Assembly: GCA_034437255.1 (NCBI GenBank)
Contig: DAOTUH010000126.1
Span: 19,198 to 83,197, forward strand
Direction of reading: 5' to 3'
From: Anaerolineae bacterium
GTDB taxonomy: Bacteria > Chloroflexota > Anaerolineae > B4-G1 > SLSP01
DNA length: 64,000 bases
The notes under the pieces are model-generated. The model made no database searches. It was not told the origin of the DNA and was given only the letters and a program-made list of their open reading frames with translations. Of the stretch, positions 2,351 through 20,206 are shown piece by piece. How positions within the stretch are numbered: position 1 is the first letter of the stretch; every line of letters begins with the position of its first letter. The position numbers and the translations under genes are program-made.

Positions 2351-2440
2351 AGACGCCGCCGACCAAAGGTCGGACAGTCGCCAAGATTTTAAATTTGTCC
2401 TTACTTTTCTGAATATTAAAGCCAGCCTAGATCAATAAAA

Positions 2441-2513
2441 TCTACCATCTTATGAATTTCCTTTGCGTTCTTGGCGCCTTTGCGTGAGGTTGATGGTTAT
2501 TTCAGTGAAGTCA
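2441..2513 (+). repeat. Conserved ~72-nt element R, copy 1, containing mini-ORF MNFLCVLGAFA (2452-2487)
   Basis: About 93% identical to 58141-58213. Outer inverted repeat ACCATC...GATGGT. Internal direct repeat CCTTTGCGT x2. Confidence 0.5.
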
Positions 2514-2556
2514 AAGGGCAAAGGTAAAAACCGGATTATTGAGAAGCCTATGAATC

Positions 2557-3351: not shown

Positions 3352-3374
3352 GTTTTCCTCTCTTTCTCTACCTT

Positions 3375-4772
3375 CTATCGACAGCCGTATGCGCGTGCCT
3401 CGCGCTCCAACCGGCAGCCGCCGCCGCACATCTCAAGATCAGGGCAATCCCAGCAGGTCTCCGGAAGCCCCGCCGCCTGCGGATTCTCCTCACGCTCCCG
3501 GAAACTACGGAAGAGATCGCTGTTCCAGATGGCGTCCCAGGGATCGCGCAGCAGGTTGCCCGCCGTCACGTAGTACGATTGGCAGGGCAACACGTCGCCA
3601 TTAGGCTCGACGCAGATGGAGTACTCAGCGGCGTTGCAGCGTTTGGGCGCCAGGCCCAGCGCCACCGGCGAGAGCTCGCAGTAGTCGGTCACGGTGTACC
3701 AGAGAAAGCGCATGCCCAGCTCGGCAGCGCGTTCCCGCACGGCCACCAGCACCGACGCCATCTCCTCCGCCGGGATCGCATCGGGCGTCGCCAGGCCGCG
3801 TCCCGCGTAGATTATGCCATTCATCGCGAAGGTCGTCAGGCCGAGGTTGTGCACGAAATCGACGGTCTCCAGAGCGTGATTGACGTTGCGGCGCGTCAGC
3901 GTGGTGTTGGTGATGGTGTGGAAATCGCACACCAGTGCGTTCTCAATGCCCCGCACGGTCTGCTTGAAAGCGTCAGCGTTGACCATAGCGTTGTGCACGT
4001 CGGCGCGGCAGGACTCCAGCGTGATCTGCACGTGGTTGAGGCCCGCGTCGCCCAGCGCGTCCACCAGCGGTCGATGGGAGAGCGCGCGCCCGTTGGTGTT
4101 CATCCCCACGATCTGGCCCAGGTCATCGGCGTGCCGGACGATGGCGGGTAGGTCTGGGTGCAGCGTCGGTTCGCCACCGGTGAGGATGATGTGCGGCACC
4201 CCCACGTCGGCCAGCGTCTCCAGCACGCGGAACCAGTCTTCGGTGGGCAGCGGGGGCATCTCACGTCGGCCCGGCTCGTTGTAGCAATGCGCGCAGGCGT
4301 TGTTGCACCGGTAGGTCAGCGCCAGGTCGGCTTTGAAGGGCGCGCTGACGGGCGTGCTAAAGAGCGGCGCGAATTCCACCAGCGACTGGACCGCGCAGGT
4401 CGGGCAGCCGGATTCGACGGTACGGAACCGGTCGATGAGTTCGTAGACCTGGGCCAGCGCCGCGTCGAGCGCCGCGCGCGCCACACCCCGGTACCGTTGT
4501 GCGAGCGCCGCGCGCGCCCGAGCCTGCGGCACGTCATCCAACGCCAGTTTCGCCATCTCCGTCGCCGTCGCGTTGAGATGCACGGCGTCGGTCACGTCGG
4601 CGAAGAGCACGCCCGATCCGTCCTCTGCAACGCGCAGATGCAAGCGCCGCTTGCCCTCCCTCACCGGCACCGGATACGTGTACAAGCCCGGTTCCGGCGG
4701 TGCAGGCGGCGCTAACAGCGTCCACGCTGCCTGAACCTCTTCTTGAACCTGCGCCCACCAGCTGCCCATCAA
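3375..4772 (-). CDS. Radical SAM/SPASM-domain enzyme (PqqE/MftC-like) with fused N-terminal PqqD-like RRE
   Basis: LTYRCNNACAHCYN carries the CxxxCxxC AdoMet-cluster motif. GGEPTLHPDL. C-terminal Cys-rich SPASM region CWDCPDLEMCGGGC. N-terminal LHLRVAEDGSGVLFADVTDAVHLNATATEMAKLAL resembles a PqqD/RRE fold. Confidence 0.85.
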   Translation of the reverse strand: MMGSWWAQVQEEVQAAWTLLAPPAPPEPGLYTYPVPVREGKRRLHLRVAEDGSGVLFADVTDAVHLNATATEMAKLALDDVPQARARAALAQRYRGVARAALDAALAQVYELIDRFRTVESGCPTCAVQSLVEFAPLFSTPVSAPFKADLALTYRCNNACAHCYNEPGRREMPPLPTEDWFRVLETLADVGVPHIILTGGEPTLHPDLPAIVRHADDLGQIVGMNTNGRALSHRPLVDALGDAGLNHVQITLESCRADVHNAMVNADAFKQTVRGIENALVCDFHTITNTTLTRRNVNHALETVDFVHNLGLTTFAMNGIIYAGRGLATPDAIPAEEMASVLVAVRERAAELGMRFLWYTVTDYCELSPVALGLAPKRCNAAEYSICVEPNGDVLPCQSYYVTAGNLLRDPWDAIWNSDLFRSFREREENPQAAGLPETCWDCPDLEMCGGGCRLEREARAYGCR

Positions 4773-4954
4773 TTACCTCTCATATCGGCCCGCGCGTAAC
4801 CCGCGCCGCGTCTACGAAGCAGGCACCTACACAACCAGACGCTCACCGGACGCGCCGCGCCACCGCTTCCAGCCGCGTTAGCGGCGTCGGGTTGATGCGC
4901 TGGTTAGGTGCCTCCGCTCTGCATACCAACCTCTTTACCCAAAAATCCTTGTTT

Positions 4955-6229
4955 TCAATCGGCTATTGCCATACCTCGTTCAACTACCTCAATCGCTTGT
5001 CCAACACCGTCTTCAGCACGGATCCGCTCACCCAATGCATCAGCATGTACCCGAATGTTTTTGTCTGTGACTGCCGTGGCAATCGCCGCTCCCAACTTCC
5101 TCACTGTCATTCTCTTGCGCGGTATTGCCTTCGGCCCAACACCAAGCCTCATTACCTGCCGCGCCCAGAATGGCTGATCACCAAAGTGGGGCACCAACAC
5201 CGAAGGCACACCTGCTCGCAACCCCGCAGCCGTCGTTCCCGCTCCACCATGATGCACCACCGCGGCTACGCGCGGGAATAGCCAATTGTGAGGCACCGAT
5301 TCAAGTTTGAACACACCATCCGGCAAATCAACACTCTTCAGCCCGCCCCAACCTGACGCAACCAGCCCTCGTTGCCCTGACCGCTTCAGCGCTTTCAGGA
5401 CGATCTCGGTCGTTGATTCTGGATCACGGCTTGACATACTTCCAAAGCCAACATATACCGGAGGTGGGCCAGCCTCAAGGAATCTCACTAAATCGGTGGG
5501 GGGGAGCCAATCTGACGAGTGGTCAAGGAACCAGTATCCTGTGACATGAATGTGCTCATCCCAATCCGGTGGCTTAGGGACGACAGATGGACTGTAGCTG
5601 TAAAGCATGGGTACCGGTCGTCCATCCAGCTGGCCATAGGGCCACTTGAAGAGCGAAATTGGCGGCAATCCCAACTGCTTTTGCCGCCAGTGGTTGATGA
5701 AGCGCCCCGTGAGCTGTTGTGCAAATTGCTCAACCATGATGTGTGTCGAGAGATTGTAACTGCCGCCTAAGGGGAGGAAAGGAAACGCCAGGTTCGGAAA
5801 GCTGCGGGTACGATTGAAGAAAGGAAACGGTAAGGCCCAAAAACAAGGCAATCTTTGCTTCTCAGCAATATGATAAGCTCCTATTCCAAGCGTTGAAAAG
5901 ATGATGGCTTCCGCCGTCTGAGAAGCCTGCCAGACTCTACCCGCGAGTTGCTCCAGCGTCGGCTGCATCATACGGATGATTTGCCACATTCCCTGAATGA
6001 CATTGCGGCCCGATTCTAGCACATCCCACGCAGCTTCTGTCCCCAACAACTCTCGTGCGTTCATGCCAAGAGAAAAGAAATCCAATCCTTGACTTCTGAC
6101 AAACCTCTCGAAATCATCAGTCGTGACAAAAGTCACTTCATATCGCCTGGTCTTCTGCAGCCCTACGCCCAGCGCCACGAGTGGTTGCACGTCACCACGC
6201 GAGCCAAGTGCCAAAATCATACTGCGCAT
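4955..6229 (-). CDS. GT1-family glycosyltransferase (MGT/UDP-glycosyltransferase-like)
   Basis: N-terminal ILALGSRGDVQP. C-terminal HHGGAGTTAAGLRAGVPSVLVPHFGDQPFWA is a UDP-sugar binding signature. AAGGAAA SD before the ATG at 6229. Confidence 0.85.
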   Translation of the reverse strand: MRSMILALGSRGDVQPLVALGVGLQKTRRYEVTFVTTDDFERFVRSQGLDFFSLGMNARELLGTEAAWDVLESGRNVIQGMWQIIRMMQPTLEQLAGRVWQASQTAEAIIFSTLGIGAYHIAEKQRLPCFWALPFPFFNRTRSFPNLAFPFLPLGGSYNLSTHIMVEQFAQQLTGRFINHWRQKQLGLPPISLFKWPYGQLDGRPVPMLYSYSPSVVPKPPDWDEHIHVTGYWFLDHSSDWLPPTDLVRFLEAGPPPVYVGFGSMSSRDPESTTEIVLKALKRSGQRGLVASGWGGLKSVDLPDGVFKLESVPHNWLFPRVAAVVHHGGAGTTAAGLRAGVPSVLVPHFGDQPFWARQVMRLGVGPKAIPRKRMTVRKLGAAIATAVTDKNIRVHADALGERIRAEDGVGQAIEVVERGMAIAD

Positions 6230-8169: not shown

Positions 8170-8261
8170 GCGAAAAACGTTAGAACGTTTGAACGTTCAA
8201 ACGCTCTAACGTCTCCGCTTGTGTTCTCGGGTTTCGTGTACCAGCTCGTTATCGTGCGCGG

Positions 8262-11156
8262 CTAGCGTGGTCGATGTCCCGTCAATCTCTCTCGCAGTTC
8301 GATAAACGCTTCGAGATCGCCTTCGGCGAGGAGGCGGGCCTGGTCGAGCCACGTGGACGTGTAACGGACGCGAATGCCGCTCTCGCGGAGTATAGCTTGA
8401 ATCTCCTCCGGCGTCAGGGCCGCCAGCTGCTCGAAGAGCGCGATGCCGGCCGCGTTGAGCAGCTTCTCGCTCTTTGGCCCCAGCCCCCAGATGCGCTGGA
8501 GGTCGTCGGGCTCCGTCAGCTTGCGCTCTTGCACCGGCTCCGGCTTGGCTGCCGGCACAGCAAAGGAGATCGCCGCGGTCGGCGGCGTGGGCATGCGCCA
8601 GCGGTAATCGTGCTGCATGGCCTGCTTGAAATCCTCCTGGATGCCGGACTTATCGTGGATCTTCCACTGATCGCCCGTCCAGCGGTAAAGCAGCAGCCCA
8701 CGGATCTGTTGTGCATACGGCCGCATGTTCCAACCATCGATCTCCTCGTAGATTTTGCGCACCCAGCCGATGTTAGCGTTGATCCACCCCTGCGACGCCG
8801 GATTGTCGCACGTGGGCGCGTTGTCCGGGCGACAGACGTGATTCGTCTCGGTGATGTAGACGGGCAGATCCTTCCACTTGTAGGGAATGCGCTCCATAAA
8901 CTGTCGATAGGTCTGGAAATCGAAGTAGTGATCGTTCAACAACGGATCGCCAAAGGTTTCCAGATGCGTGATGGCTTCCAGCGACGGTCCGTGCGTGTAG
9001 GCGTGCAGGATGAAACCATCCAGCGAATCGATGTTGTCCATCATCTTCTGGAAGTAATCTAAGGGCCGCCAGCGCACATTGCCCAGCAGGGGCATGGACG
9101 AAGAGTTGTAAGGGTCGACGGCGCCAGGACAGACCAAGGCGTTGGGCAGCACGTCCTTGATGGCAGCGTAGATCTTGTTGAAGGCCTCCGCGTAAAGCTC
9201 TGCCGTGATGTGTTGCTTAGGATGATGCAGCCCGCCCGGATGCTCGCTGGGATTGTTTTGCTCGTTGCCAATCTGGATCGTCCAGGTGTAGTCATCCGGC
9301 GAGAGATCGTCCCGCTTGAGGTAAATCTCAACCCAGCGCGCGCACGCCTGCGCGAACTCATCGTAGTGGCGGGATTCGGGCAGCGTGCCGCCGGGATGGT
9401 AGCCATGATTGAGACGTACGATGACACCGTAGTCCTTCTCCATCCAATCCTGGACGCGGTTGCGGATATCCTGATTCAGACCGACGTCCTGGGGACGCCG
9501 CCGTACTACCTCTGTGAAGAAGACCCAGCCCTTCTTCCCCCCGGCGTTGAAGAGATTGCGGATCGGGTCCCGCGTGTAGTGGTCGTCGCTAAGCTGGGCA
9601 GCATGCATGCCGAAGATGTGGGGCGAGAGCCCGCGATCTAGCCAGCCGTCGCGCGCCTGTACCCGCTGATCTTTCTGCTCGGGACGACGCACATACCAGG
9701 CCGCCACATGTCCCTCTCTCCGCGAGGGCGTCCGAACCTTGATCCATTTCTCTTGCTCGCCGATTTTGTTCCCCGTGACTGTAGGATCTTCCAGAGAGCG
9801 CAACACGGCACCATGCGGCACCCACCAGACCTGGACATGATCCGTTCCCGGCCCGCTGCGCACCCGCAGCCCGTACTCGGGGCTTTCCACGACAACGAAT
9901 CGAGCGGGCTCGCCGGACGGCGTCGGTTTTGGCTCAACCTCGGTCTCGAGCTTGAGATACCAGGCCGCCGTGTAGCCGCTCTCATCTTCCGCCGTCTGAA
10001 CGTGTAGCCACTCGTCGTGCTCGCCGATTTTGCGCCGCACCTGGTCGGCCGGTTCTAGCGCTTTAATGATCGCACCATCGGGCATCTGGGCGACGATGTC
10101 GTGCTCCGTGCCCGGCCCGCTGCGGAGCTTGAGCGGCATCTCTGGGCTTTCTACCACTAACAACAGCGTAGGCGTCGGCTTCTCCTTCTCCGGCAGCCGC
10201 AGATACCACGCCGCCGTGTAGCCTTGTTTCCCGTCCGGTGTCTTGACCTTGAGCCATTCCCCGTACTCGCCAATCTTACGGCGCACGTCGATGTCCGGCT
10301 CCAACGCCTTGAGCACCGTCCCGTCGGGCATCTCGGCGACAATCTCATGTTCCGTGTCCGGCCCGCTGCGCAACTTGAGGGGGGTCTCGGGGCTCTGGAC
10401 GACGACGGAGAGCGTCGGCTCCGGCTGTTCCTCCTCCGGCAGTTTCAGATACCAGGCAGCCACGTACCCGTTCTGACCGTTGTGCAGCCGCACCCACAGC
10501 CACTGACCGTGCTGCCCGACCTTCTTGAGCGTGACATCCACCTTTTCCAACGAACCCAGGACAGTCTCATGATCCACGCGCCCAACTTGCTCGCTGCCCA
10601 CGTAAGGCCTGGCCCGCACGTTCAGGAACCCAACCTCCGGGCTGTGCACTTGCACCTTCATGGTGGGCTTAGCGGGTGGTTCCGGCTCCACGCCACCCTC
10701 CGAAAACGGCAACAGATAGGGGCGAGGATTCACGATATCGTAGGGAAAATAGGTCTCGTTGCTTCCCGTCGCGCCATCTTTCTTAAGTGTCAGGTGAAGA
10801 TGCGCACCAAAGGAGTTCCCACTATTCCCGCCCAACCCGATCAGCTGCCCGGCCCGCACGGCCTGGCCTTCGATGACGACGACGGAGGAAAGATGCGCGT
10901 AGACGCTGGTGAAGCCATTGCCGTGCTGAACGCGAACCTGATTGCCGTAGGGTCTCTTGTTGGGATTGGAGTTACCATCAAGACTAACGCGACTCACGAA
11001 GCCATCGGCGACGGCATAGACCTCACTTCCTTCCGGCGCCTTGAAATCCAGCCCCTCGTGTCCAGGCAACCCAAACTTCTGGTAGAACTCCGGTCGGACA
11101 CCGAATTCCTGGGTGATCCTGTTAAACTCTGTCGGCCAACGCATACGAAAACTCAT
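8262..11156 (-). CDS. Multidomain cell-wall hydrolase: M23 peptidase + 4 SH3b-like repeats + clan GH-A glycoside hydrolase + C-terminal helix-hairpin-helix
   Basis: HEGLDF...HLHLT is an M23 signature. Four near-identical ~95-aa repeats end in AAWYLKLP. IGNEQN and YITETN resemble GH-A acid/base and nucleophile motifs. IWGLGPKSEKLLNAAGIALFEQLAALTPEEI is HhH-like. GGAGGG SD before the ATG at 11156. No signal peptide. Confidence 0.8.
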   Translation of the reverse strand: MSFRMRWPTEFNRITQEFGVRPEFYQKFGLPGHEGLDFKAPEGSEVYAVADGFVSRVSLDGNSNPNKRPYGNQVRVQHGNGFTSVYAHLSSVVVIEGQAVRAGQLIGLGGNSGNSFGAHLHLTLKKDGATGSNETYFPYDIVNPRPYLLPFSEGGVEPEPPAKPTMKVQVHSPEVGFLNVRARPYVGSEQVGRVDHETVLGSLEKVDVTLKKVGQHGQWLWVRLHNGQNGYVAAWYLKLPEEEQPEPTLSVVVQSPETPLKLRSGPDTEHEIVAEMPDGTVLKALEPDIDVRRKIGEYGEWLKVKTPDGKQGYTAAWYLRLPEKEKPTPTLLLVVESPEMPLKLRSGPGTEHDIVAQMPDGAIIKALEPADQVRRKIGEHDEWLHVQTAEDESGYTAAWYLKLETEVEPKPTPSGEPARFVVVESPEYGLRVRSGPGTDHVQVWWVPHGAVLRSLEDPTVTGNKIGEQEKWIKVRTPSRREGHVAAWYVRRPEQKDQRVQARDGWLDRGLSPHIFGMHAAQLSDDHYTRDPIRNLFNAGGKKGWVFFTEVVRRRPQDVGLNQDIRNRVQDWMEKDYGVIVRLNHGYHPGGTLPESRHYDEFAQACARWVEIYLKRDDLSPDDYTWTIQIGNEQNNPSEHPGGLHHPKQHITAELYAEAFNKIYAAIKDVLPNALVCPGAVDPYNSSSMPLLGNVRWRPLDYFQKMMDNIDSLDGFILHAYTHGPSLEAITHLETFGDPLLNDHYFDFQTYRQFMERIPYKWKDLPVYITETNHVCRPDNAPTCDNPASQGWINANIGWVRKIYEEIDGWNMRPYAQQIRGLLLYRWTGDQWKIHDKSGIQEDFKQAMQHDYRWRMPTPPTAAISFAVPAAKPEPVQERKLTEPDDLQRIWGLGPKSEKLLNAAGIALFEQLAALTPEEIQAILRESGIRVRYTSTWLDQARLLAEGDLEAFIELRERLTGHRPR

Positions 11157-11244
11157 AATGAAACCCTCCTTGCCTCGTGGATTTAACGTCCCTTTTGGCA
11201 TCTTCCGGGATACTTGGAGCATCCCGGAAGATCAGTGAAAACCC

Positions 11245-11631
11245 TTACTCCTGGGCCTGCTGCACAGCTTTGAGCGCCGCGGCTGCGGCATTCCCCACGG
11301 ATTCGATCATCTTGGCACGGTTGTCCATGGCCTGCTGGACGGTCTGGGTGTGGATGTCCCAGACGCCCCTATCCACCGTGCCGTCCTCGGCCTGGGGTAT
11401 GCAGATATCGATGTCGCCGTCCAGTCGGACCTGGGTGAAGGCGCGTAGCTCGATCTTGCCCTCGCCGGCGGCGCCCGCTACGTCCGGTCGCTCAGCGACG
11501 AAAATCTGCACTTGATCGTGGGGCGTGGTGTACGTTCGCACGTCCAGGACCGCCACGTCGCTGACGAAGGACTCCACCTTTTCCGCCAGGTCACTCGCGA
11601 ACTTCCGAACCGCTTCCTGTAAGTTAGCCAT
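11245..11631 (-). CDS. Hypothetical 128-aa protein, homologous to the C-terminal domain of the adjacent caspase-like peptidase
   Basis: Shared motifs are TYTT, DGDID and W.IH...V..A...RA with residues ~560-650 of the 12405-14375 product. Lies 12 nt downstream of the upstream gene in the same operon. Confidence 0.6.
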   Translation of the reverse strand: MANLQEAVRKFASDLAEKVESFVSDVAVLDVRTYTTPHDQVQIFVAERPDVAGAAGEGKIELRAFTQVRLDGDIDICIPQAEDGTVDRGVWDIHTQTVQQAMDNRAKMIESVGNAAAAALKAVQQAQE

Positions 11632-11643
11632 TGTCCTCTCCTT

Positions 11644-12408
11644 TTAGATTAGAGTTTCGATATCGGGCCACGAAGCCCGTAGTTCTTTCAATACGTCTCG
11701 CACAAACCGCCACGTGGCGGGTAGCAACAGGACCTGTCCTCCGGGAACCGAGGCTTTCACCGCCAACCCGGCGGCGCCCGTCGCCACCACAGAGACGAGA
11801 CGCGTCAGCGCGATGCGCGAGGCCAGCGCCAGATGCACTGCCTGCCGGTGTTCCGCTATCGAGGACGGCGTGAGCGCCGGCGCCCAGGTCGTGCCGAAGT
11901 CGCCCGTCCAGCCCACCTCGGTGCGACCGACGAACCGACCGCCCACGGTGGTCTCGATGCGGACGTAGTGCGAGACCATCTCGCGCACCCGCTCCACAAA
12001 GCTGTTCCATTGTTTGTAGGCGTCGCTGTCCATGACGCGCTCTGATTCACCCGGCCCAAACGCCACCGGCCGCTGCAGCGTGGTGACGCTTTGCCGCAGC
12101 GCTTGCCGAGGATCGGTCAGACGATCACCCGTGCCAAAGGCCACCGGCTCTGACGGGTCAAACCGTGCCAGTTCCCGCTCGGCGTGCGCCAGATCACGCT
12201 GGCTCAGTTCCAGCGCTTTCGCCCGCGCTGCCAACTCGGTCTGCGCCGCCTCTGGGTTTTCTGACAGGTCGACGCGCCAGGTCAGCACGTCGGGTGCTGC
12301 CTCGCCGGCGCCGAAGGAGACGGCCTCCGCTTCGACGGCCCAGATGCCCAGCGGATCTTCGGCCTCCGACCGCGAGACCCCGGTCAGCGTGAATCCGGCG
12401 CCGGTCAT
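11644..12408 (-). CDS. Hypothetical 254-aa protein, translationally coupled (ATGA overlap) to caspase-like gene
   Basis: ATG at 12408 overlaps the TGA of the upstream gene. Internal repeat PVAFGTGDRL / PVAFGPGESE. No recognised domain. Confidence 0.5.
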   Translation of the reverse strand: MTGAGFTLTGVSRSEAEDPLGIWAVEAEAVSFGAGEAAPDVLTWRVDLSENPEAAQTELAARAKALELSQRDLAHAERELARFDPSEPVAFGTGDRLTDPRQALRQSVTTLQRPVAFGPGESERVMDSDAYKQWNSFVERVREMVSHYVRIETTVGGRFVGRTEVGWTGDFGTTWAPALTPSSIAEHRQAVHLALASRIALTRLVSVVATGAAGLAVKASVPGGQVLLLPATWRFVRDVLKELRASWPDIETLI

Positions 12409-14375
12409 ACAGGCTTCAGGCTCTTGAGCAGATTCGTCGCCATCTCCGCCATGGCCTCCAGGAACTGCGCCCGGTTGATCTGGGCCTCCTTGACCATGTC
12501 GGCGTGAATCTTCCACAGCACCTCGTCGACACCGCCGTCCGCTTTCTCCGGCACATAGCTCTGGATGTCCCCGTCAAACTCGATACGCGTCAACGCACGC
12601 GGCGTCGCCGCAGCCTCTGCATCTTTGATGACAGCTGCGAGATCCTCAGTGGTGTAAGTTTCCACCTCCAGCGTGGGGATCTCCTCGGCGGCTTTGCCCA
12701 GCGCCTCCGCCAGTTGATCGGTGAAGGTGCGCAGCGAGTCGGTCAGCCCGGCGAACTGATCCCGCAGGCCGAAGGCGACGGCGTAGTCCTCGGCTCCTGA
12801 TGGCTCTGGTGCGAGCGCCGTGGTCGGTTCGCTTTCTTCCGAGGGTGCTGAGGCGGCTTCGCTCTCTGCTTCTGCCAGCTTCTCTTTTGTGCTCTCGCTG
12901 ATAGTGATGGTGGGACGCTCCGTCTGCGGGCTCTCTTCGTCCTCCGCCACCGAGAGGCGCACCGCCGGATCGCCGATGATGACGTAGCCGCGCGCGTCGT
13001 TGTTCGCCGTCCACATACCCGCTAGCTTCACGTCGTCGCGCCGCTTGTCGAACTCGTTGACCTCCTCGATCTCGCTGGCCAGCACCACGGAGAGCTCGGC
13101 GTGGCGCTCGTTGAACCACTCCAGAGCCGCGCCCACGGGATAACCGGCCATCAGCTGATCCAGCGTGTCTTGAAAGACCTGTAACTGGCGCCCTGCCCCG
13201 CTCCACAGGAAAGAGTATCCCCAGGCGCGCTCGACGTGGCCCACGACGGCCAACGCGCCGCCCTTGGGATGGCCCAGGAGCCGTTGCGGCAACCGCGCGA
13301 TAAAGGCGTGGGGCGCGATCTCGGCCGGCTCATCAAAGGCCCTGTGCGCAAACTGATCCAGCTTGGGCGTTCCCGCACCGTAGCAGGCGAAGAAGAAAGC
13401 CATGGTGCCGGCCAGCCGCGCGTTCGAGGCGACGTCATCGGCCGAGAAGTAGAACGCCTCAGGAATCGGATCGTGCCACTCACGGGGGCCAGGCCAATCC
13501 TCACAGAGCAGCGCGCCCTGGTGCTTGAGCTGGCGCGGGTCTCCTTTGGGAAAGCCCATCCCGTGACTGGCCGAGAAGAACAGTACCGGCGTCCCGTCGC
13601 CGCCCAACAGCGTTTCGAGACGCGCCTTGGTCGCCTGCCCGATGAACTGGCTATCCCACGACGGCTGTTTGTCCGACATGGCCTCGACCAGGGGACGCAC
13701 CAACTCCTTGGCACTCATCTCCGTCGCCCGGTCGTGCTGGTTCTTCACACCAAAGAATCGCGCGCGACGCGGCAGCCGTAAATCGCCGGTCTCCGCTGCC
13801 ACCACACTCTCCGCATACTGCGCGTACTCCTCGAGCGTGTCGAAGAAAATGCGCCCGACGGCATACTGCACGTCGAGCTGATACTGGAAGCGGTAGGGAA
13901 TCGTCTCTGGCCCGCCGACGATCAGCAGATAGTAGGGCACTTTGGCGGGATTGGCCGGCCCCGGCCCCATGTTGCGCGGATCGCGGCCCAAGAAATCCAA
14001 GTAGGAGTCGGCCGGCCGGTAGCCCGCCGCGCGCATGTACTCCTGATAGAATCGTTCGTCGTCCTGCGTGGCCTGCTCCTTGCGCAGATCCAACAGCGGC
14101 TTGAGGGCCTCACGGATCGCCGGGGCCCGTTCGTCCTTTGCTCCGAAAATTACGGCCCATCCCGTCTCCGCCAGGTTCGTCTGATCGGCATTGATGCCAA
14201 AATGTGGCTGCATGCTGTCATGGCGATTCTTCAACTCCCGGTAATACTCGTCATCTTTGCTCAAGGGCTCGCCCAGCGCGACCGACGCCACGTCCTCAGG
14301 CAGCATGGGCGGCGTCCAATACTTCCCGCTGGCACCATTGATACCATTGACGTAAAGCAGCTTCTCTTCATTCAT
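12405..14375 (-). CDS. Clan CD caspase/gingipain-like cysteine peptidase with extra C-terminal domain
   Basis: His motif LFFSASHGMGFP and Cys motif FFFACYGAGTP in the order and spacing typical of C14/C25 peptidases. ATG at 14375 overlaps the NTPase stop by 8 nt. Confidence 0.75.
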   Translation of the reverse strand: MNEEKLLYVNGINGASGKYWTPPMLPEDVASVALGEPLSKDDEYYRELKNRHDSMQPHFGINADQTNLAETGWAVIFGAKDERAPAIREALKPLLDLRKEQATQDDERFYQEYMRAAGYRPADSYLDFLGRDPRNMGPGPANPAKVPYYLLIVGGPETIPYRFQYQLDVQYAVGRIFFDTLEEYAQYAESVVAAETGDLRLPRRARFFGVKNQHDRATEMSAKELVRPLVEAMSDKQPSWDSQFIGQATKARLETLLGGDGTPVLFFSASHGMGFPKGDPRQLKHQGALLCEDWPGPREWHDPIPEAFYFSADDVASNARLAGTMAFFFACYGAGTPKLDQFAHRAFDEPAEIAPHAFIARLPQRLLGHPKGGALAVVGHVERAWGYSFLWSGAGRQLQVFQDTLDQLMAGYPVGAALEWFNERHAELSVVLASEIEEVNEFDKRRDDVKLAGMWTANNDARGYVIIGDPAVRLSVAEDEESPQTERPTITISESTKEKLAEAESEAASAPSEESEPTTALAPEPSGAEDYAVAFGLRDQFAGLTDSLRTFTDQLAEALGKAAEEIPTLEVETYTTEDLAAVIKDAEAAATPRALTRIEFDGDIQSYVPEKADGGVDEVLWKIHADMVKEAQINRAQFLEAMAEMATNLLKSLKPV

Positions 14376-17300
14376 AATTACTCTCCTCTGCGAATCCCTC
14401 CGCGTCCAAGTCCAACTCACTTTCCACGTACTGCCAGGATAAATCCAACACGTCCTCGAACCGTACCAGATACCGCCGTATGGTGCCATCCCTGGAACCG
14501 GAGGCCAGATAGTGGCCATCGGGGCTGAAGGCCAACGTGTACACGATGGGATCGGTATGCCCAGGAAGCACAGCCATCAACGTTGGCGCGCGGGCTGGGA
14601 ATCGATCCAACTTCCAGAGGCGCACGTGACTATCACGCGCCGCCGTCGCCAGGTACAGCCCGTCGGGTGAGAAAGCGACACCATAGACGAAGGCCGGATG
14701 CTTCAACGGCGCTACCACGGTCGTCATGGTCTGCATGCTCCAGAGGCGCGCCGTCTGGTCCCACGCGCCGGAGGCCAAATATTGGCCATCAGGGCTGAAG
14801 TCCAGGGCAGGCACGTAGTTGCTGTGCCCCGTCAGCGTGACCGCCATCGTGACGGAGAGGCCACGCTCGGTCTCTCGCACATCGAAGAGGTGGATGTTCC
14901 CACCCAGGTAGCCCAACGCCATCCGGTCCCCCTGAGGACTTAATGTCCCACCCCAGAGGCCGCCGCGCGGAATCGTCACGCGATGATCAAGCGTCCAATC
15001 CTCCGTCCGCCAGACAAAAGCCTGCCCGCCATTGGAGACAGTGAGGAGGAAGCGACCGTCCGGCGTGAAGAAGGCCCGCTCCACATCTGCACGGTGTCCT
15101 GTCAACGTGGCGATAAGCGCACCCGTGCCCGTGTCCCATACCCTCGCATTGTTATCCGTGGCGCAGGAGACCAGATATGCGCCGCTAGGACTATACACCA
15201 GGTCCCAGAGCTCACCGCCAAGATAGCCTTCGATCTCCCGGACCACGTTGCCGTGCACCTGGGACCAGATACGCACCTCTCCGCTCTTACTGGCCGAAGC
15301 GAGGAACGTGCCATCAGGGCTGTACGTCACCTTGCGCACCAAGTCGCTGTGTCCCGTGAGCGTCGAAAGACCGGCCTGCCGGGGGAAATCCCGGTCCCAG
15401 ATGCGCACCGTGTTGTCACCGGCGCCGGCAGCCACCCAGCGGTCATCCGGGCTGAAAGCAACGTCCAGCACTACGTTGCCCGGCCCCCTCAACACGCTGA
15501 TGGCGTGCTGGTTACGCGAGCCTACGTCCCATAGATGCACCGTCCGATCCCGCGAGCCGGAGAGCAGATAGCGCCCGTCGGCACTGAAGGCCAGGGTTCT
15601 CACCTCGGCGCTGTGCCCGACCAGTGTCAGAACGGCCTCACCTGTGTCGAGATCCCAGAGTCGAATCGTTTTATCGGCGGAGGCCGAGGCCAACAGCGGT
15701 TCCGTCGGGCTGAAAGCCACCGCTTCCACGGCTTCGGTATGGGCCGTCAGTTGGCGCGGCGGGCTGACCGACAGCAGGCTAGGACCTAGAGCCCGCAACT
15801 GCCAGAGCCAAACCGTCCCGTCGTAGCACGCCGCTGCCAGGGTGAATGGCTCTCCAGTAACCATGGCTTCGATAGGTGAAGCGGTGCCTGTGAACGCAAG
15901 ATCGGCCACGCGGCGCGGCAGCTCGTCCAGGGTGAGCAGCAGCTCCGGCACCAGCGTATCGCCCCGCCGGCCCAGGGACCAGATCCGTATCAGCCCCTCT
16001 TGATCAGGTGAGTAGACATCCCGCAGCGTTTCCCCATAATCCCCACCCGTGGCAAGATAGTAGCCCTGCGGGTCGAAGGCCACGGTGTAGATCTCATCGT
16101 ACATCCCATCCGGCGTTATGACGCGCAGGCTTTCTACCCACGTCTCGGCCTCTGTGTCCCAGATTTCCACGATGCCGCCGGTCTCTCCATCGTCGCCGCC
16201 GGTCGCCAGAAACCGTCCGTCGGGACTCAACGCAAGATCGTAAACGGCACCCCGCGTCGGGAGAGGGATTAGCGTTTTCACGTTCATGCGAGTGTCGATG
16301 CGTTGCACGCCGCCGGCGGGCAGTGCTGTATAGAGAAAGCGACCGGTCTCGTCATAGGCTACGCTATGCACTTGATCCATCAGGCCCCCATACACCGAGA
16401 CGGGATAATACTCCTGCACCGCCTGGCGCAGCATGATTTGGGCCTCGTAGGTATTGATCTCGCCCATCAGCGTCTGGCTGCTCTCCTGCCACCAGCCGCG
16501 CAGACTGGGCTGAGTCCCGGCGCGGGCCAACCGGATGCTCTGCTCCCGGTCGGTCTCCAACACCGAGCGTGCCTTGGCGGCCAACTCGCGGGAATAGGCC
16601 TGCAGGCCGTTACGCATGGCTATCCACGCCAGCAGGCTGACCACAACCAGCACCATCCCGGCGAAGACGGCGCCCACGAGACGCAAACGGCGTGCGCGGC
16701 GCTGCGCTTGATCGGCCCGGCGGCTGGCTTCCAAGAACTCCTCTTCGAAGGGCTCCAGCTGGTCGGGATGGACCTCGGCCCAGGCGAGCGCCTCCTCCAG
16801 CGTCGCGTCGAGGTACAGGAGCGCCGCGTCGTCGGTCTCCTTCCACCGCTTAGCCGTGGTGCGCAGCGGCGTCTGCCGCGCCGCCTCCCACGTGCGGTTC
16901 GACTGCCGGATGGGATCGATAAGCCGGTCGTGGACCAGCTCATACCAGCGGGCACCGGCGCGCAGGTCCGAGCGGATGAGGTGCCGGGCATCCAGCACAT
17001 CGACGGCGGTGTTGGGCAGACCGGCGGTCTCCTCCGGCCCGCGCATAGCCAGGCCGCGCGTTCCCACCGACGTGATAAGATGCTCGGCGGTCCAGCGACG
17101 CACCTGCCGTTCGGGCACCTCGGTCTCGGCGATGACGTGGGCGATGGCGCTCTCGTAGAAATCGACCAGGGCACGGTCAATATCGCCGTATTGCTGAACC
17201 TCGTTCCACTGGATCAGGTTGTCTTCCTGAGCCGGCAGGTTCGCCCACAGCCGCTGACAGACCACCTGCAGCTGCACCGGCTCGACGAAGCGCCCCAGCA

Positions 17301-18048
17301 CCTCAACCTCGTCGTCGCGCCCATACCGCTGCACCTTGCTGCGTCGCAGGTCGTCGACCAGGCGCTCGGCCACGCCCTCGTCGAAGGGAACGCCGGTCTG
17401 GGCCGCCGGCTTGCGGACGGCTTGGATGGCGCCCTCGACGCCCAGCCGCTCCATACGGAAGCGAGCGCGGAGCCGGCGGGGCAGCAGCGGCGCGTAGGGC
17501 TCGACTTCGGCAACGTAATCCTCCCGCATGGCAAAGACCACGCCCAACGTGGGCAGCGCGTCCAACGCCCCCTCAACCTGGACGAAGAAACTCTCGGCGT
17601 CCTGCCAGCGGTGGCGGTGCGCCGTAAAGAGCTCCTCGAACTGATCGACGATGAGCAGCGGCGGGCGGTCGTCATCGGGCAGATACGTCTGCAAGAAATC
17701 GAGCAGGGACTGTTCGCCCAGTGGCGCCGGCGGCTCGTCCTCGCCGACCAGCGAGAGCAGCACACTGAAGACGAAGACGTTGTCCACGTCCGCGTCGGTC
17801 AGGCCGGGCGGCAGATCGTTGGCGACGCGCACCACGGGCAGCACGTTGAAAAGCTCCTCCTCCAGCGCGAGGATGACCTCGGCGTTGAGCAATGACGTCT
17901 TGCCGGCGCCAGAGGGCGCGTAGAAGAGCACCACGCGCTCGGCCAGGATCAGGGAGAGCAAGTCGCGTGCCTCGCGGTTGCGCCCGAAGAAATTCTTGCG
18001 GTCGGCGCGCTCGTAGGGGCGGGGACCGACGTAGGGATTTCCTTTCAT
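14368..18048 (-). CDS. STAND-like (nSTAND1-like N-terminus) P-loop NTPase - single TM helix - WD40 beta-propeller
   Basis: The N-terminus NPYVGPRPYERADRKNFFGRNREARDLLSLI...LFYAPSGAGKTSLLNA shows an nSTAND-like signature. Hydrophobic helix LVGAVFAGMVLVVVSLLAWIAM near residue 480. At least 10 WD40 repeats (GHSAEVRTLAFSADGRYLLSGSRDRTVHLWD and others). Start ATG 18048 overlaps the upstream stop as ATGA. Confidence 0.85.
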   Translation of the reverse strand: MKGNPYVGPRPYERADRKNFFGRNREARDLLSLILAERVVLFYAPSGAGKTSLLNAEVILALEEELFNVLPVVRVANDLPPGLTDADVDNVFVFSVLLSLVGEDEPPAPLGEQSLLDFLQTYLPDDDRPPLLIVDQFEELFTAHRHRWQDAESFFVQVEGALDALPTLGVVFAMREDYVAEVEPYAPLLPRRLRARFRMERLGVEGAIQAVRKPAAQTGVPFDEGVAERLVDDLRRSKVQRYGRDDEVEVLGRFVEPVQLQVVCQRLWANLPAQEDNLIQWNEVQQYGDIDRALVDFYESAIAHVIAETEVPERQVRRWTAEHLITSVGTRGLAMRGPEETAGLPNTAVDVLDARHLIRSDLRAGARWYELVHDRLIDPIRQSNRTWEAARQTPLRTTAKRWKETDDAALLYLDATLEEALAWAEVHPDQLEPFEEEFLEASRRADQAQRRARRLRLVGAVFAGMVLVVVSLLAWIAMRNGLQAYSRELAAKARSVLETDREQSIRLARAGTQPSLRGWWQESSQTLMGEINTYEAQIMLRQAVQEYYPVSVYGGLMDQVHSVAYDETGRFLYTALPAGGVQRIDTRMNVKTLIPLPTRGAVYDLALSPDGRFLATGGDDGETGGIVEIWDTEAETWVESLRVITPDGMYDEIYTVAFDPQGYYLATGGDYGETLRDVYSPDQEGLIRIWSLGRRGDTLVPELLLTLDELPRRVADLAFTGTASPIEAMVTGEPFTLAAACYDGTVWLWQLRALGPSLLSVSPPRQLTAHTEAVEAVAFSPTEPLLASASADKTIRLWDLDTGEAVLTLVGHSAEVRTLAFSADGRYLLSGSRDRTVHLWDVGSRNQHAISVLRGPGNVVLDVAFSPDDRWVAAGAGDNTVRIWDRDFPRQAGLSTLTGHSDLVRKVTYSPDGTFLASASKSGEVRIWSQVHGNVVREIEGYLGGELWDLVYSPSGAYLVSCATDNNARVWDTGTGALIATLTGHRADVERAFFTPDGRFLLTVSNGGQAFVWRTEDWTLDHRVTIPRGGLWGGTLSPQGDRMALGYLGGNIHLFDVRETERGLSVTMAVTLTGHSNYVPALDFSPDGQYLASGAWDQTARLWSMQTMTTVVAPLKHPAFVYGVAFSPDGLYLATAARDSHVRLWKLDRFPARAPTLMAVLPGHTDPIVYTLAFSPDGHYLASGSRDGTIRRYLVRFEDVLDLSWQYVESELDLDAEGFAEESNYE

Positions 18049-20090
18049 CGTTGCGTCGCCTCCCACCGCTCGCGCAGCTCGGCCGTGAATTGATGTGTGC
18101 TACCCCAGAAGACGTTGATCTCAGCATCCTGGAAATACTGGCGCAGGAAGTGCTGCACGGCGCCTACGTCCTCCACCTTCCCACTGGCGCTGTCCAGTTG
18201 TACCGTGACGTGCTTGAAACGGTGTCGCTGATTGAGCGTGGTCACCAAGCCCCGCAGGATCACGCGAAACTCCCAATCGTAGAGGCTGTACCCGATGAAG
18301 AGCAGCGTGCTGTTAGCCAGCGCGCCCCGGATGTACGTGGGGATGCGCTCCATCTCCGCCGAGACCTTGACGAGGAAGTCGAGGTAGTGATCGGAGGTGA
18401 GCACCAGGGATTCCGGCACCTCGTCGTGACCGAAGAGATGGTAGACCAGCGGCGTGTCCGGCGTCGGCACGTAGTTGGGATCATCGGCAAAGCGGCTGGA
18501 GAGCCAATCCAGGTCGCGGTGCCAGGGGCAGATCTCGCGTTCAGCGTCTCGACCGCGCGCGGCTAGGGCCGCCGTCATGAAGTTATCGAGGTTGGTGGTG
18601 ACGTAGAGCGGCAAATTTAGATCTGCCAGCACCTCGTGCGGATCGTTAGGATCGTCACCGGCGATGCGCTGCCATTCCACTGCATCCACCAGATCCGACA
18701 CGCTCTCCGGCGGTTGGGATGGTTGCAATTCCTCCGGCAATCGCTCGTAGAAATGGTTCACCATGGTACTCAGCAGTTCGTAGCGGGGGAAATCCTCGCC
18801 CTGGCTGCTGGCGAGATACTGCGCCACCCACGGCAAGACGATGCGGTCGGCGAAGGGATAGGCGTGAAGTCGCGTCCACCCACCGGCGATTTCTCGGGGC
18901 AGGGGCAACCAGCGCCCATGCACTCTTGGCCCGATCACGGGGATGCACTTGCCGCGCTGGATCATACGCAGGAGTCCGGTCCAGAAGATCCGGGGATTCT
19001 GCCCACCCAGCACCGCGCCGCGCGCGTCGGCTTCGGCGCTCCACAGTTGGGCTGACTTGAGCCGCATAAAGAGCACGGGCACGGCAGCATCGGGGCGACC
19101 GGCGGAAAGCAACGTGCTCCGCGCCACGTTGAGCGCCACGTCCACCTGCCCGTCTTCAAGGAGTCGACAGTAGAACGTCGCGCTGAGCTTGCGGGCCGTC
19201 TCCACCGCCACAAAATCCTGCATGGCAACGACGGCGGGCACGCCGACGGCGACCAGCTTCGGCGCCAGTCCCCGGAAGGCGTCGCCGGTAGCCCGCTGCG
19301 CGCTCTGGCAGGCATTCAGAAAGATCAGGCGGGGTCGCACGTCCTGGCGCGCCAGCGTATGCACCAGCGCCTCGTCGGTAACGAGCTCCGTGGCGCCGTC
19401 CTCGTTCTGGAGAAAGAGCACGGCCCGCTCGCGCCGCCGGCTGTAGGCGCCGTGCCCCACGTAGTGCAGGATGTGATACCCTTCGCGCAACGCTGCTTCA
19501 AGCCGTTCCAGCGTGACGGGCGGCTCCAGAAAATCGAGGGCGATCTCGTCCTCGCTCATCTCTTCAAAAGCCGCCGTGAGCAGCGCGCGCTCGGTCTCCG
19601 TCTCCACCGGCGTCAGCTCGTAGGCCGATGCCAGATCACTGGGATTGGAGATGACCGCCAGCACACGAATGGGGCGTTCTTCGACGGCGCCGCCCCAAGG
19701 TAGCGAGACGGGCAGATAGCGCGAGAAGGGTGTCTTCGCCGTCGCCGAGAGCAGCGTCGTCCCGGTGTGGAGCAGTTCCCAGGGCAGCACGTGGAGCTCC
19801 GCCGCCTGCGCGTCGATGCGCAGCCTGATCCGGCGGCGTTCCGCTTGCCCGCGCACCTCGCTCCAGGCCTGGCGCAGCGCGTCGTCTTCTAGAAGCAAAT
19901 CGAGGAGCTGCTGCCCATCGGCTACGGGATCGCCGCTAGAGGTCCAGTTGGCCGCCTCCGCCGCCAGATAACCCCGGGGGAACTCCTGCTCTCCCTCAAG
20001 CGTGATCTCGACGGGATACCCTTGCTCTCGTCGGGGAAAGATGCGGACTTCCAAATCCGCGAATCCGTTCTTGGTGCCGGTTTCACGCAT
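18045..20090 (-). CDS. CHAT-domain protease fused to SIR2-like (SIR2_2-type) domain
   Basis: CHAT His/Cys dyad HYVGHG...LIFLNACQSA. C-terminal PLYVTTNLDNF...LLFIGYSLYDWEFRVIL matches SIR2_2-like motifs. ATG at 20090 with AAGGA SD preferred over the TTG at 20186. Confidence 0.8.
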   Translation of the reverse strand: MRETGTKNGFADLEVRIFPRREQGYPVEITLEGEQEFPRGYLAAEAANWTSSGDPVADGQQLLDLLLEDDALRQAWSEVRGQAERRRIRLRIDAQAAELHVLPWELLHTGTTLLSATAKTPFSRYLPVSLPWGGAVEERPIRVLAVISNPSDLASAYELTPVETETERALLTAAFEEMSEDEIALDFLEPPVTLERLEAALREGYHILHYVGHGAYSRRRERAVLFLQNEDGATELVTDEALVHTLARQDVRPRLIFLNACQSAQRATGDAFRGLAPKLVAVGVPAVVAMQDFVAVETARKLSATFYCRLLEDGQVDVALNVARSTLLSAGRPDAAVPVLFMRLKSAQLWSAEADARGAVLGGQNPRIFWTGLLRMIQRGKCIPVIGPRVHGRWLPLPREIAGGWTRLHAYPFADRIVLPWVAQYLASSQGEDFPRYELLSTMVNHFYERLPEELQPSQPPESVSDLVDAVEWQRIAGDDPNDPHEVLADLNLPLYVTTNLDNFMTAALAARGRDAEREICPWHRDLDWLSSRFADDPNYVPTPDTPLVYHLFGHDEVPESLVLTSDHYLDFLVKVSAEMERIPTYIRGALANSTLLFIGYSLYDWEFRVILRGLVTTLNQRHRFKHVTVQLDSASGKVEDVGAVQHFLRQYFQDAEINVFWGSTHQFTAELRERWEATQR

Positions 20091-20206
20091 GATCGTATCC
20101 TTGGCTATGGAAAATGCGCCACTTGAAGTGTGTCGGCCCAGATTCACCGAAGGTTCAAAAATAGTATAGCATAGATTTGAGGGCAAAACAATAGAGGTGT
20201 GGGAAG

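Follow-up and report, generated by a model that had tools for sequence, protein, structure and literature searches.

A single gene in the stretch of DNA analysed here (64,000 nucleotides, referred to as the window) encodes a predicted bifunctional cell-wall hydrolase that lacks a leader, would be made in the cytoplasm and has the layout of a phage endolysin, yet is chromosomal in its Anaerolineales lineage. The protein, hereafter the lysin, joins a known peptide-cutting domain to a predicted sugar-cutting domain of an undescribed family that is also phage-borne. Its ORF is a genuine gene, found only once in the window, and belongs to an uncultured, filamentous member of the Anaerolineales. We put just short of even the likelihood that the lysin serves the protease/STAND conflict module encoded upstream as its endolysin-like lytic output (Table 1).

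Table 1. Features of the lysin locus in window coordinates (residue numbers refer to the lysin).
Feature	Positions	Strand	Remarks
Terminator-like hairpin with T-run	8183..8198	minus	3' of the lysin stop; marks the end of the co-directional cluster; weak evidence
Lysin CDS	8262..11156	minus	965 codons including the stop (964 aa); full-length orthologues up to 84% identical
C-terminal helix-hairpin-helix-like module (COG3743/DUF4332-like)	8307..8519	minus	residues about 880-950
Clan GH-A (beta/alpha)8 glycosidase domain (predicted), uncharacterised family	8571..9659	minus	residues 500-862
Four SH3b (SH3_3) wall-binding repeats	9681..10658	minus	residues 167-240, 249-322, 331-404, 419-492
M23 (LytM-type) metalloendopeptidase domain	10677..11156	minus	residues 1-160; Pfam PF01551
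RBS AAGGAGGG	11164..11171	minus	7 nt before the lysin ATG; kept in the window and five orthologous loci (L001, L002, L003, L043, L125)
Stem-loop TCTTCCGGGAT / 9-nt loop / ATCCCGGAAGA	11201..11231	minus	between the 128-aa gene and the lysin; without U-tract
s128b, 128-aa protein	11245..11631	minus	no known domain; shares homology with the last ~115 aa of the clan-CD peptidase (tblastn, alignment)
p254, 254-aa protein	11644..12408	minus	family without known fold; conserved C-terminal hydrophobic helical hairpin; fast-evolving
Clan-CD (caspase/gingipain-like) cysteine peptidase	12405..14375	minus	weak Peptidase_C25 match; C-terminal s128b-like domain
nSTAND1 NTPase with WD40 beta-propellers	14368..18066	minus	Pfam
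CHAT peptidase fused to SIR2-like domain	18045..20186	minus	Pfam; PADLOC matches ThsA-like SIR2, SAVED_CHAT

The lysin lies within an uninterrupted minus-strand ORF (8262..11222 in the ORF listing). The start at 11156, chosen in the original prediction, is the true one, as both the RBS and the start codons are kept in orthologues and the 22 codons farther upstream are not conserved. An MSFR start (ATG-AGY-TTY-CGN) follows the same RBS in L001, L002, L043 and L125, whereas in L003 the RBS is kept and the start differs (MAFS, ATG-GCT-TTC-AGT). A secretion signal is absent, as had also been predicted: no signal peptide is possible in the lysin, whose M23 domain begins at about residue 5; the maximal upstream extension (to 11222) would add hydrophilic sequence and is limited by a stop codon. 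The protein contains no hydrophobic segment anywhere, and neither a lipobox nor a transmembrane (TM) anchor was found in it. The gene is co-directional with those upstream, and 88 nt separate its start from the stop codon of the 128-aa gene, in agreement with the approximately 90 nt first reported. The TCTTCCGGGAT/ATCCCGGAAGA stem in this gap is seen again in L001 and L002, and other hairpins occupy the same place in L043 and L003. The gap and its stable hairpin mean that the lysin may be separately transcribed or regulated, which counts against coupling to the upstream genes. Downstream, the gene that follows is convergent, and the terminator-like hairpin is weak evidence because the number of sites found by the scan was not above that in shuffled sequence.

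The predicted leaderless layout of M23, four SH3b repeats, GH-A glycosidase and HhH module proved structurally correct, the glycosidase call holding at clan level only. Peptidase_M23 matches residues 32-128 (PF01551, E 1.9e-25, 89.3 bits against a cut-off of 28.7), and the Zn-binding and catalytic motifs are intact (H33-E-G-L-D37, of the form H33-x3-D37, and H119-L-H121, of the form H119-x-H121). M23 activators of the EnvC/NlpD type are degenerate and lack these motifs. The domain is thus predicted to retain its active site and would cut peptidoglycan cross-bridges or stem peptides. Partial NCBIfam matches to MepM, ShyA and DipM score far under every equivalog cut-off, and among the PHROGs the domain matches endolysin and tape-measure families. 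SH3_3 is matched above threshold in four stretches (PF08239, E 7.4e-32, 109.7 bits); most orthologues have three repeats. The claim that the repeats are nearly identical in DNA does not hold: pairs are 53-70% identical in DNA and 35-68% in protein, the longest common exact word is 15 nt, Tandem Repeats Finder reports no tandem repeats, and a repeat search returned 66-78% identity over short stretches only. The "mirrored" plus-strand ORFs at 10030 and 10243, cited as a sign of repeat identity, are ordinary antisense ORFs of a GC-rich gene. The C-terminal module has only sub-threshold HhH-type matches in Pfam (TfoX_C, IMS_HHH, DUF4332 and HHH_5, residues 884-945), together with NCBIfam matches to the C-terminal extensions of NuoE, L21 and PhaH. 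It resembles solved COG3743-like domains (PDB 8yy9_O, E 4.5e-7) and is found in all 27 full-architecture orthologues.

Residues 500-862 are assigned with high confidence to a clan GH-A (beta/alpha)8 barrel and predicted to be a retaining beta-glycosidase. The putative acid/base is at Asn631-Glu632, directly after beta4 (strand at domain residues 127-130), and the putative nucleophile, Glu770, lies within the beta7 strand (domain residues 267-272). Among 38 homologues, the Asn-Glu pair and the beta7 Glu are invariant or almost so: residue E133 of the domain never varies and E271 is conserved to at least 90%. Conservation also extends to His718/Tyr720 and Arg581/Asn583. The lysin domain matches no Pfam or PHROG model, and some of its homologues show weak sub-threshold Pfam matches to DUF5722, Glyco_hydro_cc and Glyco_hydro_39 (GH39). 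A named family (GH39, GH5 and the like) was considered and rejected, as identity to solved structures, PslG and GH39 included, is only 12-14% and no Pfam GH model reaches threshold. The GH-A assignment of the original prediction therefore stands for the clan but does not extend to a named family.

The family to which this domain belongs comprises about 850-1200 clusters at 50% identity. Its members are fused to Amidase_2, M23, M23 with SLT, LysM, SH3_3, ChW or GH108; in some, carbohydrate- or surface-binding modules of the F5/8 type C and N_BRCA1_IG kinds are present, and in two (P0315 and P0322) the fusion partner is a STAND-type ATPase. Signal peptides occur in a few members and in two the domain follows a TM anchor, which argues that it acts outside the membrane. 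The family also occurs in 36 IMG/VR contigs, real phage genomes among them, with viral homologues 28-39% identical, and no match was obtained in 50,697 GenBank phage records. Lysin-like phage proteins carry the GH-A domain as their N-terminal catalytic domain. On one phage contig (L008, with thymidylate synthase, DNA polymerase and primase), a GH-A plus M23 protein is followed by a 75-aa holin-like ORF with one TM segment. We know of no clan GH-A enzyme that cuts the glycan strands of peptidoglycan.

Upstream of the lysin, the peptidase, p254 and s128b form a triad for which no Pfam or PADLOC model was matched and no PHROG match was found. The catalytic dyad of the peptidase, His272 (SHG) and Cys332 (FACxG), is invariant in nine homologues. 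The s128b homologues (n=37) are all stand-alone proteins of about 124-138 aa; the s128b-like domain thus occurs on the peptidase and by itself, and is not found in the lysin. No Pfam match to an effector-associated domain (EAD) was obtained. As for p254, a gasdermin- or holin-type membrane breacher was considered and set aside, since the protein has neither the gasdermin fold nor the topology of a small multi-TM holin.

In the window, L002, L043 and L125, the genes follow one another in the order peptidase, p254, s128b, lysin, and what lies at the contig ends of L001, L003 and L126 agrees with this arrangement, over lysin identities as low as about 64%. In L125, the four genes occupy the same chromosomal site (flanked by DegV, AFOR and Fe-ADH) without the CHAT-SIR2 and STAND genes that the triad is additionally joined to in the window, which indicates that the four-gene block is a stable unit. 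The "defence operon plus lysin" proposed earlier therefore survives as a linkage to upstream genes, but the stable partner is the triad and not the CHAT-SIR2/STAND pair. Triad and lysin are linked in three arrangements: that of the window clade and L125, and two others. In L057, from a different lysin clade, lysin and peptidase form a single in-frame ORF of 1584 aa, followed by p254 and s128b, and in L122 s128b-like and p254-like genes come after a differently built lysin (C39-like, SH3b and GH-A). However, eleven orthologues built from the same four parts share a conserved set of housekeeping neighbours (DMT transporter, EF-G-like, DEAD-box helicase, RsgA) with no triad gene within 8-10 kb, so the lysin can do without the module. 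Another conserved neighbour in that clade encodes a secreted GH-A-like protein. The triad occurs without a lysin in four of five sampled independent p254 neighbourhoods (L123, L124, L127/128 and L129/130). Orthologues of the same architecture are spread over several Anaerolineae lineages, and the context clades mostly follow the lysin tree, so the association is in part inherited synteny and not repeated independent acquisition.

Repeated adjacency, together with one fusion to the caspase-like protease module, suggests a role in programmed self-lysis. Among the three roles first proposed for the lysin, an effector released on cell death is the best supported, the support being genomic association (the four-gene block, the L057 fusion, L122 and the STAND fusions). 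We infer that the lysin of this lineage is coupled in function to a predicted active clan-CD peptidase, to p254 with its hydrophobic hairpin and to the adaptor-like s128b. Infection or damage would trigger the STAND/peptidase module; the proteases and SIR2 would then kill the cell or permeabilise its membrane; and the lysin, by itself unable to pass an intact membrane, could afterwards reach the wall and dismantle it. It would thus execute lysis as an endolysin does, but with no classical holin. A more far-reaching proposal, which we regard as improbable when taken whole, is that the central domain defines a new family of bacterial wall glycosidases within clan GH-A, possibly the first GH-A enzymes whose substrate is peptidoglycan or a wall glycan tightly associated with it. 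Chloroflexota phages would use it as a lysin, and their hosts would have connected it with caspase-like peptidases and STAND NTPases, through operon linkage and fusion, so that it provides the lysis in programmed death of multicellular filaments, with the 254-aa and 128-aa proteins replacing the holin as membrane-breaching or adaptor parts.

The main rival, to which we give a real chance although one well below even, is a housekeeping autolysin of filamentous Anaerolineales, serving for example septal splitting, filament fragmentation or turnover of sheath and wall; it would be exported without a classical signal peptide, and its adjacency to protease and STAND genes would be a by-product of rearrangement or island insertion. 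The single copy in the window, the spread of same-architecture orthologues over Anaerolineae lineages and the eleven housekeeping sites without conflict genes all fit this explanation, as do a lysin tree that mirrors the context groups in the manner expected of vertical inheritance, an upstream gap and hairpin that permit independent expression, and a CHAT-SIR2/STAND pair that is an indel relative to L125. However, it leaves unexplained the in-frame lysin-peptidase ORF of L057, the s128b/p254 pair beside the differently built lysin of L122 and the GH-A fusions to STAND-type ATPases. Moreover, a constitutively active M23 domain and glycosidase without an export signal are hard to square with routine wall growth, and no known leaderless export route was identified. 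A separate question, that of substrate, is compatible with either role. By analogy with PslG and CcsZ, the GH-A domain might cut a secondary wall polymer, sheath or exopolysaccharide rather than peptidoglycan, with M23 and SH3b only anchoring or assisting, and might thereby serve filament release or biofilm dispersal. We consider such a matrix or sheath hydrolase rather unlikely. All characterised clan GH-A enzymes known to us act on non-peptidoglycan beta-glycans, which favours it, as do the F5/8 type C and N_BRCA1_IG modules of some relatives and the secreted GH-A-like protein beside the housekeeping-clade lysins. Against it stand the repeated fusions of the family to Amidase_2, M23, SLT, LysM, SH3b and GH108, the N-terminal catalytic position of GH-A in lysin-like phage proteins, and the low identity to PslG or any GH39.

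The two other roles of the original prediction fare much worse. A secreted or contact-dependent bacteriolysin directed at competitors is very unlikely: the pairing of M23 with a glycosidase does resemble some secreted bacteriolysins and a few relatives have signal peptides, but the lysin has neither a signal peptide nor a T6SS, T7SS, CDI or LXG-type delivery domain, no secretion-system gene was found among the scanned neighbours, and the gene downstream is convergent, with no small immunity-like gene on that side. That the lysin belongs to a resident prophage or is a domesticated phage endolysin, produced together with a holin by a phage lysis cassette, is hardly credible at this locus, even though the leaderless arrangement of a catalytic domain, binding repeats and a second catalytic domain, the PHROG matches of the M23 part and the occurrence of the GH-A family in phage genomes are all features common to phage lysins. 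The window contains no tRNA, its scanned ORFs have no matches to phage structural, packaging or integrase families, and every scanned neighbouring ORF with a Pfam match is metabolic, transport or signalling. In the ORF lists, nothing resembling a small multi-TM holin was noted beside the lysin. The distance to viral homologues, the empty comparison with GenBank phages and a chromosomal synteny conserved in several lineages likewise argue against a prophage.

If the GH-A domain truly degrades wall, a sizeable family, new as judged by Pfam and PHROG, would be added to wall hydrolases and phage lysins; to our knowledge, the GH-A fold is not used by known muramidases or glucosaminidases. If the lysin is indeed the lytic output of the module, its linkage and fusion to triad and STAND proteins would offer a concrete, testable case of caspase-like and NLR-like systems in multicellular bacteria turning a death signal into physical lysis, a step still unclear even for LypABC, which has been studied experimentally. 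Were it only a housekeeping autolysin, it would still point to how leaderless wall enzymes reach the Chloroflexota wall.

Several known systems share parts of this design. Modular phage endolysins of monoderm hosts combine a catalytic domain, SH3b or LysM repeats and a second catalytic domain, and their release depends on a holin. The lysin resembles them in being leaderless, with an N-terminal M23 domain, SH3b repeats and a second, predicted glycosidase domain, in the endolysin matches of its M23 part and in belonging to a GH-A family that adjoins a holin-like ORF in phage contigs. However, it is chromosomal and vertically inherited, lacks a phage context and an adjacent holin, is much larger, has an additional HhH-like module and uses a clan GH-A domain in place of a lysozyme, GH73, GH25 or transglycosylase fold. 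With clan GH-A enzymes (nearest GH39, represented by beta-xylosidase 1w91 and PslG 4zn2; also GH51, GH5, GH26 and GH53), it shares the (beta/alpha)8 barrel, Asn-Glu after beta4, Glu on beta7 and the Arg, His and Tyr positions. It differs from them in sequence, and its domain partners indicate the bacterial wall and not plant or matrix glycans. Similarly, the M23 fold signature and the HxxxD and HxH zinc ligands are those of LytM/lysostaphin-type enzymes (MepM, ShyA, LytM), but the lysin lacks a signal peptide, a lipobox and a TM anchor, is fused to a predicted glycosidase and scores below the NCBIfam equivalog cut-offs. In LypABC, a CARD-NLR-like lysis system of Caulobacter, a STAND/NLR-like ATPase acts with peptidases and peptidase activity is required for host cell lysis (PMC13236601). 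LypABC has no peptidoglycan hydrolase, and no holin-endolysin genes are reported for it (PMC13236601), in contrast to the dedicated lysin predicted here. A further parallel is with the NTPase/peptidase conflict systems of multicellular bacteria, for which lysozyme and papain-like peptidoglycan peptidase effectors have been predicted (Kaur, Burroughs, Iyer and Aravind, 2020; PMC7159879). As in those systems, the lysin is co-directional with CHAT-SIR2, nSTAND1-WD40 and clan-CD peptidase genes in a filamentous Chloroflexota lineage, and a small domain common to the peptidase and a stand-alone protein is reminiscent of adaptor (EAD) logic. The present case differs in that no adaptor domain is present on the lysin, the association is restricted to certain lineages, the triad falls outside Pfam and PADLOC models and the effector would be not a single domain but a full endolysin-like protein.

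The M23 and SH3b parts of the lysin are ordinary. Pfam places Peptidase_M23 at residues 32-128 (E = 1.9e-25), with the zinc motifs H33xxxD37 and H119xH121 intact, and SH3_3 in four stretches (E = 7.4e-32), as originally predicted. The repeats are not near-identical at the DNA level, as had been claimed: their pairwise nucleotide identity is 53-70 %, their longest common word is 15 nt, and Tandem Repeats Finder detects no tandem repeats in the region. The proposed C-terminal HhH stands as a module, matching two solved chains (8yy9_O, E = 4.5e-7) and resembling a small domain at the C-termini of NuoE, L21 and PhaH extensions in NCBIfam, but the HhH-type Pfam matches at residues 884-945 are all sub-threshold. 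The gene is a single uninterrupted ORF, and its product from the start at 11156 has 964 residues. That start is preceded by the ribosome-binding site AAGGAGGG, which is kept in five orthologous loci (L001, L002, L003, L043, L125). All of these share the start ATG-AGY-TTY-CGN (MSFR) except L003, which begins MAFS, and the 22 codons upstream are unconserved among them. The lysin lies 88 nt from the co-directional upstream gene, close to the ~90 nt first given, and a promoter scan of this gap found no sigma-70-like promoter. A signal peptide is impossible, because the M23 catalytic domain begins at about residue 5, the sole possible N-terminal extension is hydrophilic and ends at a stop codon, and no 19-residue window across the whole protein reaches TM-like hydrophobicity. 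The reported absence of a secretion signal thus also applies upstream of the chosen start. The lysin is leaderless, with two intact predicted hydrolase active sites and wall-binding repeats.

Residues 500-862, the presumed glycosidase, have no Pfam, NCBIfam or PHROG match. A word-indexed search found 103 homologues of this domain, the taxon-named ones being from Anaerolineae, Chloroflexota or an unclassified 'bacterium'. In their alignment (A1, domain numbering), R82, N84, E133, H219, Y221 and W310 are invariant, and N132 and E271 are at least 90 % conserved (E133 and E271 are lysin Glu632 and Glu770), a pattern that, from GH5-type signatures, we take to be typical of clan GH-A. The AlphaFold2 model built from A1 (pLDDT 91.6, pTM 0.92) has eight beta/alpha units, with the Asn-Glu pair right after strand 4 and the second Glu inside strand 7. 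The top Foldseek matches in the PDB all belong to clan GH-A (GH39 PslG, GH53, GH5 CcsZ, GH26 and others), at 7-18 % identity. Since modelled fold, Glu positions and structural matches agree, the clan assignment is sound. The glycosidase prediction therefore stands at clan level; no GH family can be assigned, the homologues giving only weak DUF5722, Glyco_hydro_cc and GH39 matches. Literature searches on DUF5722 and on GH-A endolysins returned nothing relevant.

The domain family is large: an exhaustive profile search gives 1526 clusters at 50 % identity with an E-value limit of 1e-3, 1196 with a limit of 1e-10 and 856 with a limit of 1e-30. The 103 homologues carry SH3_3, M23, LysM, ChW or GH108 partners. 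Nine representatives, from which architectures were read, combine the domain with Amidase_2 (several proteins), M23 and SLT, LysM and Amidase_2, N_BRCA1_IG and F5/8 type C (P0282), or N_BRCA1_IG and Amidase_2 (P0267); N_BRCA1_IG is also fused to it in P0054. In P0315 and P0322, the GH-A domain and a beta-propeller (WD40 or PD40) lie behind a STAND-type ATPase and a single TM helix; P0315 has Amidase_2 domains as well, and both proteins resemble transmembrane NTPases with wall-hydrolase ectodomains. Most members lack a signal peptide and three have a classical one. The fusion partners indicate a substrate outside the cytoplasm, in the cell wall, which would be peptidoglycan or an associated polysaccharide, and by this predicted architecture the family is clearly wall-associated, while undescribed in the Pfam, NCBIfam and PHROG libraries searched. 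In Chloroflexota, a large set of proteins of ~540 aa (P0046-P0094), also without signal peptide, joins an N-terminal ribbon-helix-helix (ParG-like) domain to LysM and GH-A; as with the HhH of the lysin, a wall hydrolase here carries a module of DNA-binding type.

The genes around the lysin are listed in the table. The C25-like protein carries a putative catalytic dyad (SHG/His272 and FACxG/Cys332) typical of clan CD and invariant across nine homologues. Its C-terminal domain is homologous to s128b, which is a stand-alone copy of that domain, a layout that recalls homotypic adaptor domains; a search for informative fusions recovered 37 s128b homologues, all stand-alone. For p254, a gasdermin or holin identity was rejected, as there was no PADLOC or Pfam match and no structural neighbour, and a membrane role, suggested by one conserved hydrophobic hairpin, is speculation. 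The N_BRCA1_IG gene is kept beside the lysin in L001, L002 and L125. The other window ORFs scanned either lack a Pfam match or encode proteins of metabolism, transport or signalling. Among them, the radical-SAM cluster may serve peptide or glycan modification, and the cyclase is a large signalling or conflict-type NTPase.

Features of the window and of related loci (L numbers)
Feature	Location	Strand	Basis or remark
CHAT-SIR2 protein	18045-20186	-	Pfam
nSTAND1-WD40 protein	14368-18066	-	Pfam
656-aa protein, weak Peptidase_C25 match	12405-14375	-	Pfam
Its C-terminal domain	12405-12830	-	31-37 % identity to s128b; homology covers the last ~115 residues of the protein
p254, 254 aa	11644-12408	-	ORF and homologues
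128-aa ORF	11624-12010	-	spurious; taken as GC-rich artefact because Arg/Gly-rich and overlapping conserved p254 in another frame; unconserved
s128b, 128 aa	11245-11631	-	ORF and homologues
Lysin ORF	8262-11222	-
Terminator-like hairpin	downstream of lysin, before convergent N_BRCA1_IG gene		terminator scan; site counts not above those of shuffled sequence
N_BRCA1_IG protein, 399 aa, N-terminal hydrophobic segment	6970-8169	+	convergent with lysin
Two radical-SAM/SPASM proteins, short-chain dehydrogenase, GT28/UDPGT-type glycosyltransferase	995-6229	-
1415-aa adenylate/guanylate cyclase, AAA_16 STAND-like ATPase, TPR	58510-62757	+
Site lacking the window's 14368-20186 (-)	L125:5373-6031		CHAT-SIR2 and nSTAND1-WD40 missing
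LRR-Roc-COR gene, example	L060:2787-5456
Lysis/protease island	L057:124-13598
641-aa GH-A+M23 gene, then 75-aa ORF	L008:9950-12105

Judging by its related loci, the window belongs to the uncultured Anaerolineales. When the operon proteins were compared with 122 loci by tblastn and the neighbours clustered, 27 lysins had the full architecture, and their context groups agreed with the lysin tree. In the window, L001, L002, L003 and L043 the order is peptidase, p254, s128b, lysin, whereas 11 loci have a housekeeping context (DMT transporter, EF-G-like protein, DEAD-box helicase, RsgA, secreted GH). In L052, L055, L058, L060 and L061 the lysin is followed by a co-directional gene for a ~890-aa LRR-Roc-COR protein (ROCO-type GTPase), a further signalling or conflict-type neighbour. 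L057 encodes a 1584-aa fusion, residues 12-888 resembling the lysin and 904-1582 the peptidase, with p254 and s128b homologues downstream and a second leaderless lysin (SH3b-muramidase(PF11860)-HhH) ahead. The island around it is dense, also holding an nSTAND1 fragment, a C11 clostripain-like peptidase and a CHAT-TPR protein. In L122, a lysin of different build (C39-like, SH3b and GH-A) precedes s128b-like and p254-like genes. Reverse sampling from p254 homologues found the triad of peptidase, p254 and s128b intact in every neighbourhood; a lysin follows it in L125/L126 only and is absent after it in L123, L124, L127/128 and L129/130. L125 (GCA_049975525.1) is syntenic with the window, with which it has in common the N_BRCA1_IG gene and a flank of DegV, AFOR and Fe-ADH; its site without the pair lies between DegV and the block of peptidase, p254, s128b and lysin. 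By this comparison, the CHAT-SIR2/nSTAND1-WD40 pair is an insertion or deletion relative to L125, which makes the four-gene block the stable unit and the pair a variable add-on. Triad and GH-A lysin are thus associated in three or more arrangements, including one fusion, and this association is neither universal nor necessary for the lysin. Neighbourhoods of two distant homologues (P0017, P0040) showed no consistent conflict genes.

The lysin is linked to a clan-CD peptidase module that, judging from the conserved dyad, is apparently active. It would be unable to pass an intact membrane and so, like endolysins, would act only after a membrane breach or cell death, an event that the module of peptidase, p254 and s128b would bring about, here together with the SIR2 and STAND proteins. 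We lean tentatively towards this reading, giving it slightly less than even confidence. The lysin could instead be a housekeeping autolysin, in keeping with the 11 loci of housekeeping context, a reading that is somewhat less probable yet a serious contender. An interbacterial toxin is improbable for this leaderless protein.

A prophage endolysin is the least probable reading. The domain does occur in viral sequence, in 36 IMG/VR contigs (28-39 % identity), mostly as the very first N-terminal part of proteins of 320-800 aa, and several of the contigs have an M23 match behind it; the IMG/VR contigs are the only viral evidence, as neither GenBank phages nor PHROGs gave a match. Two were examined for phage genes: L008 is a genuine phage fragment (thymidylate synthase, DNA polymerase, primase), and the neighbours in L007 had no PHROG match. 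The 75-aa ORF of L008 looks holin-like, having a single TM helix and ending in a charged tail, and with the GH-A+M23 protein it forms a candidate endolysin-holin pair from a phage of Chloroflexota. In the window, none of the scanned ORFs matched a phage family, and tRNA and Rfam scans found nothing.

The recurring link of GH-A domains to caspase-like and STAND modules was, to our knowledge, not previously known, and it is an association only. An endolysin-like enzyme dependent on a peptidase module would have parallels in known systems. Peptidoglycan-attacking effectors were predicted in related systems (Kaur et al., PMC7159879), and experiments on the NLR-like LypABC system show that modules of peptidase and NTPase are able to bring about lysis (PMC13236601).
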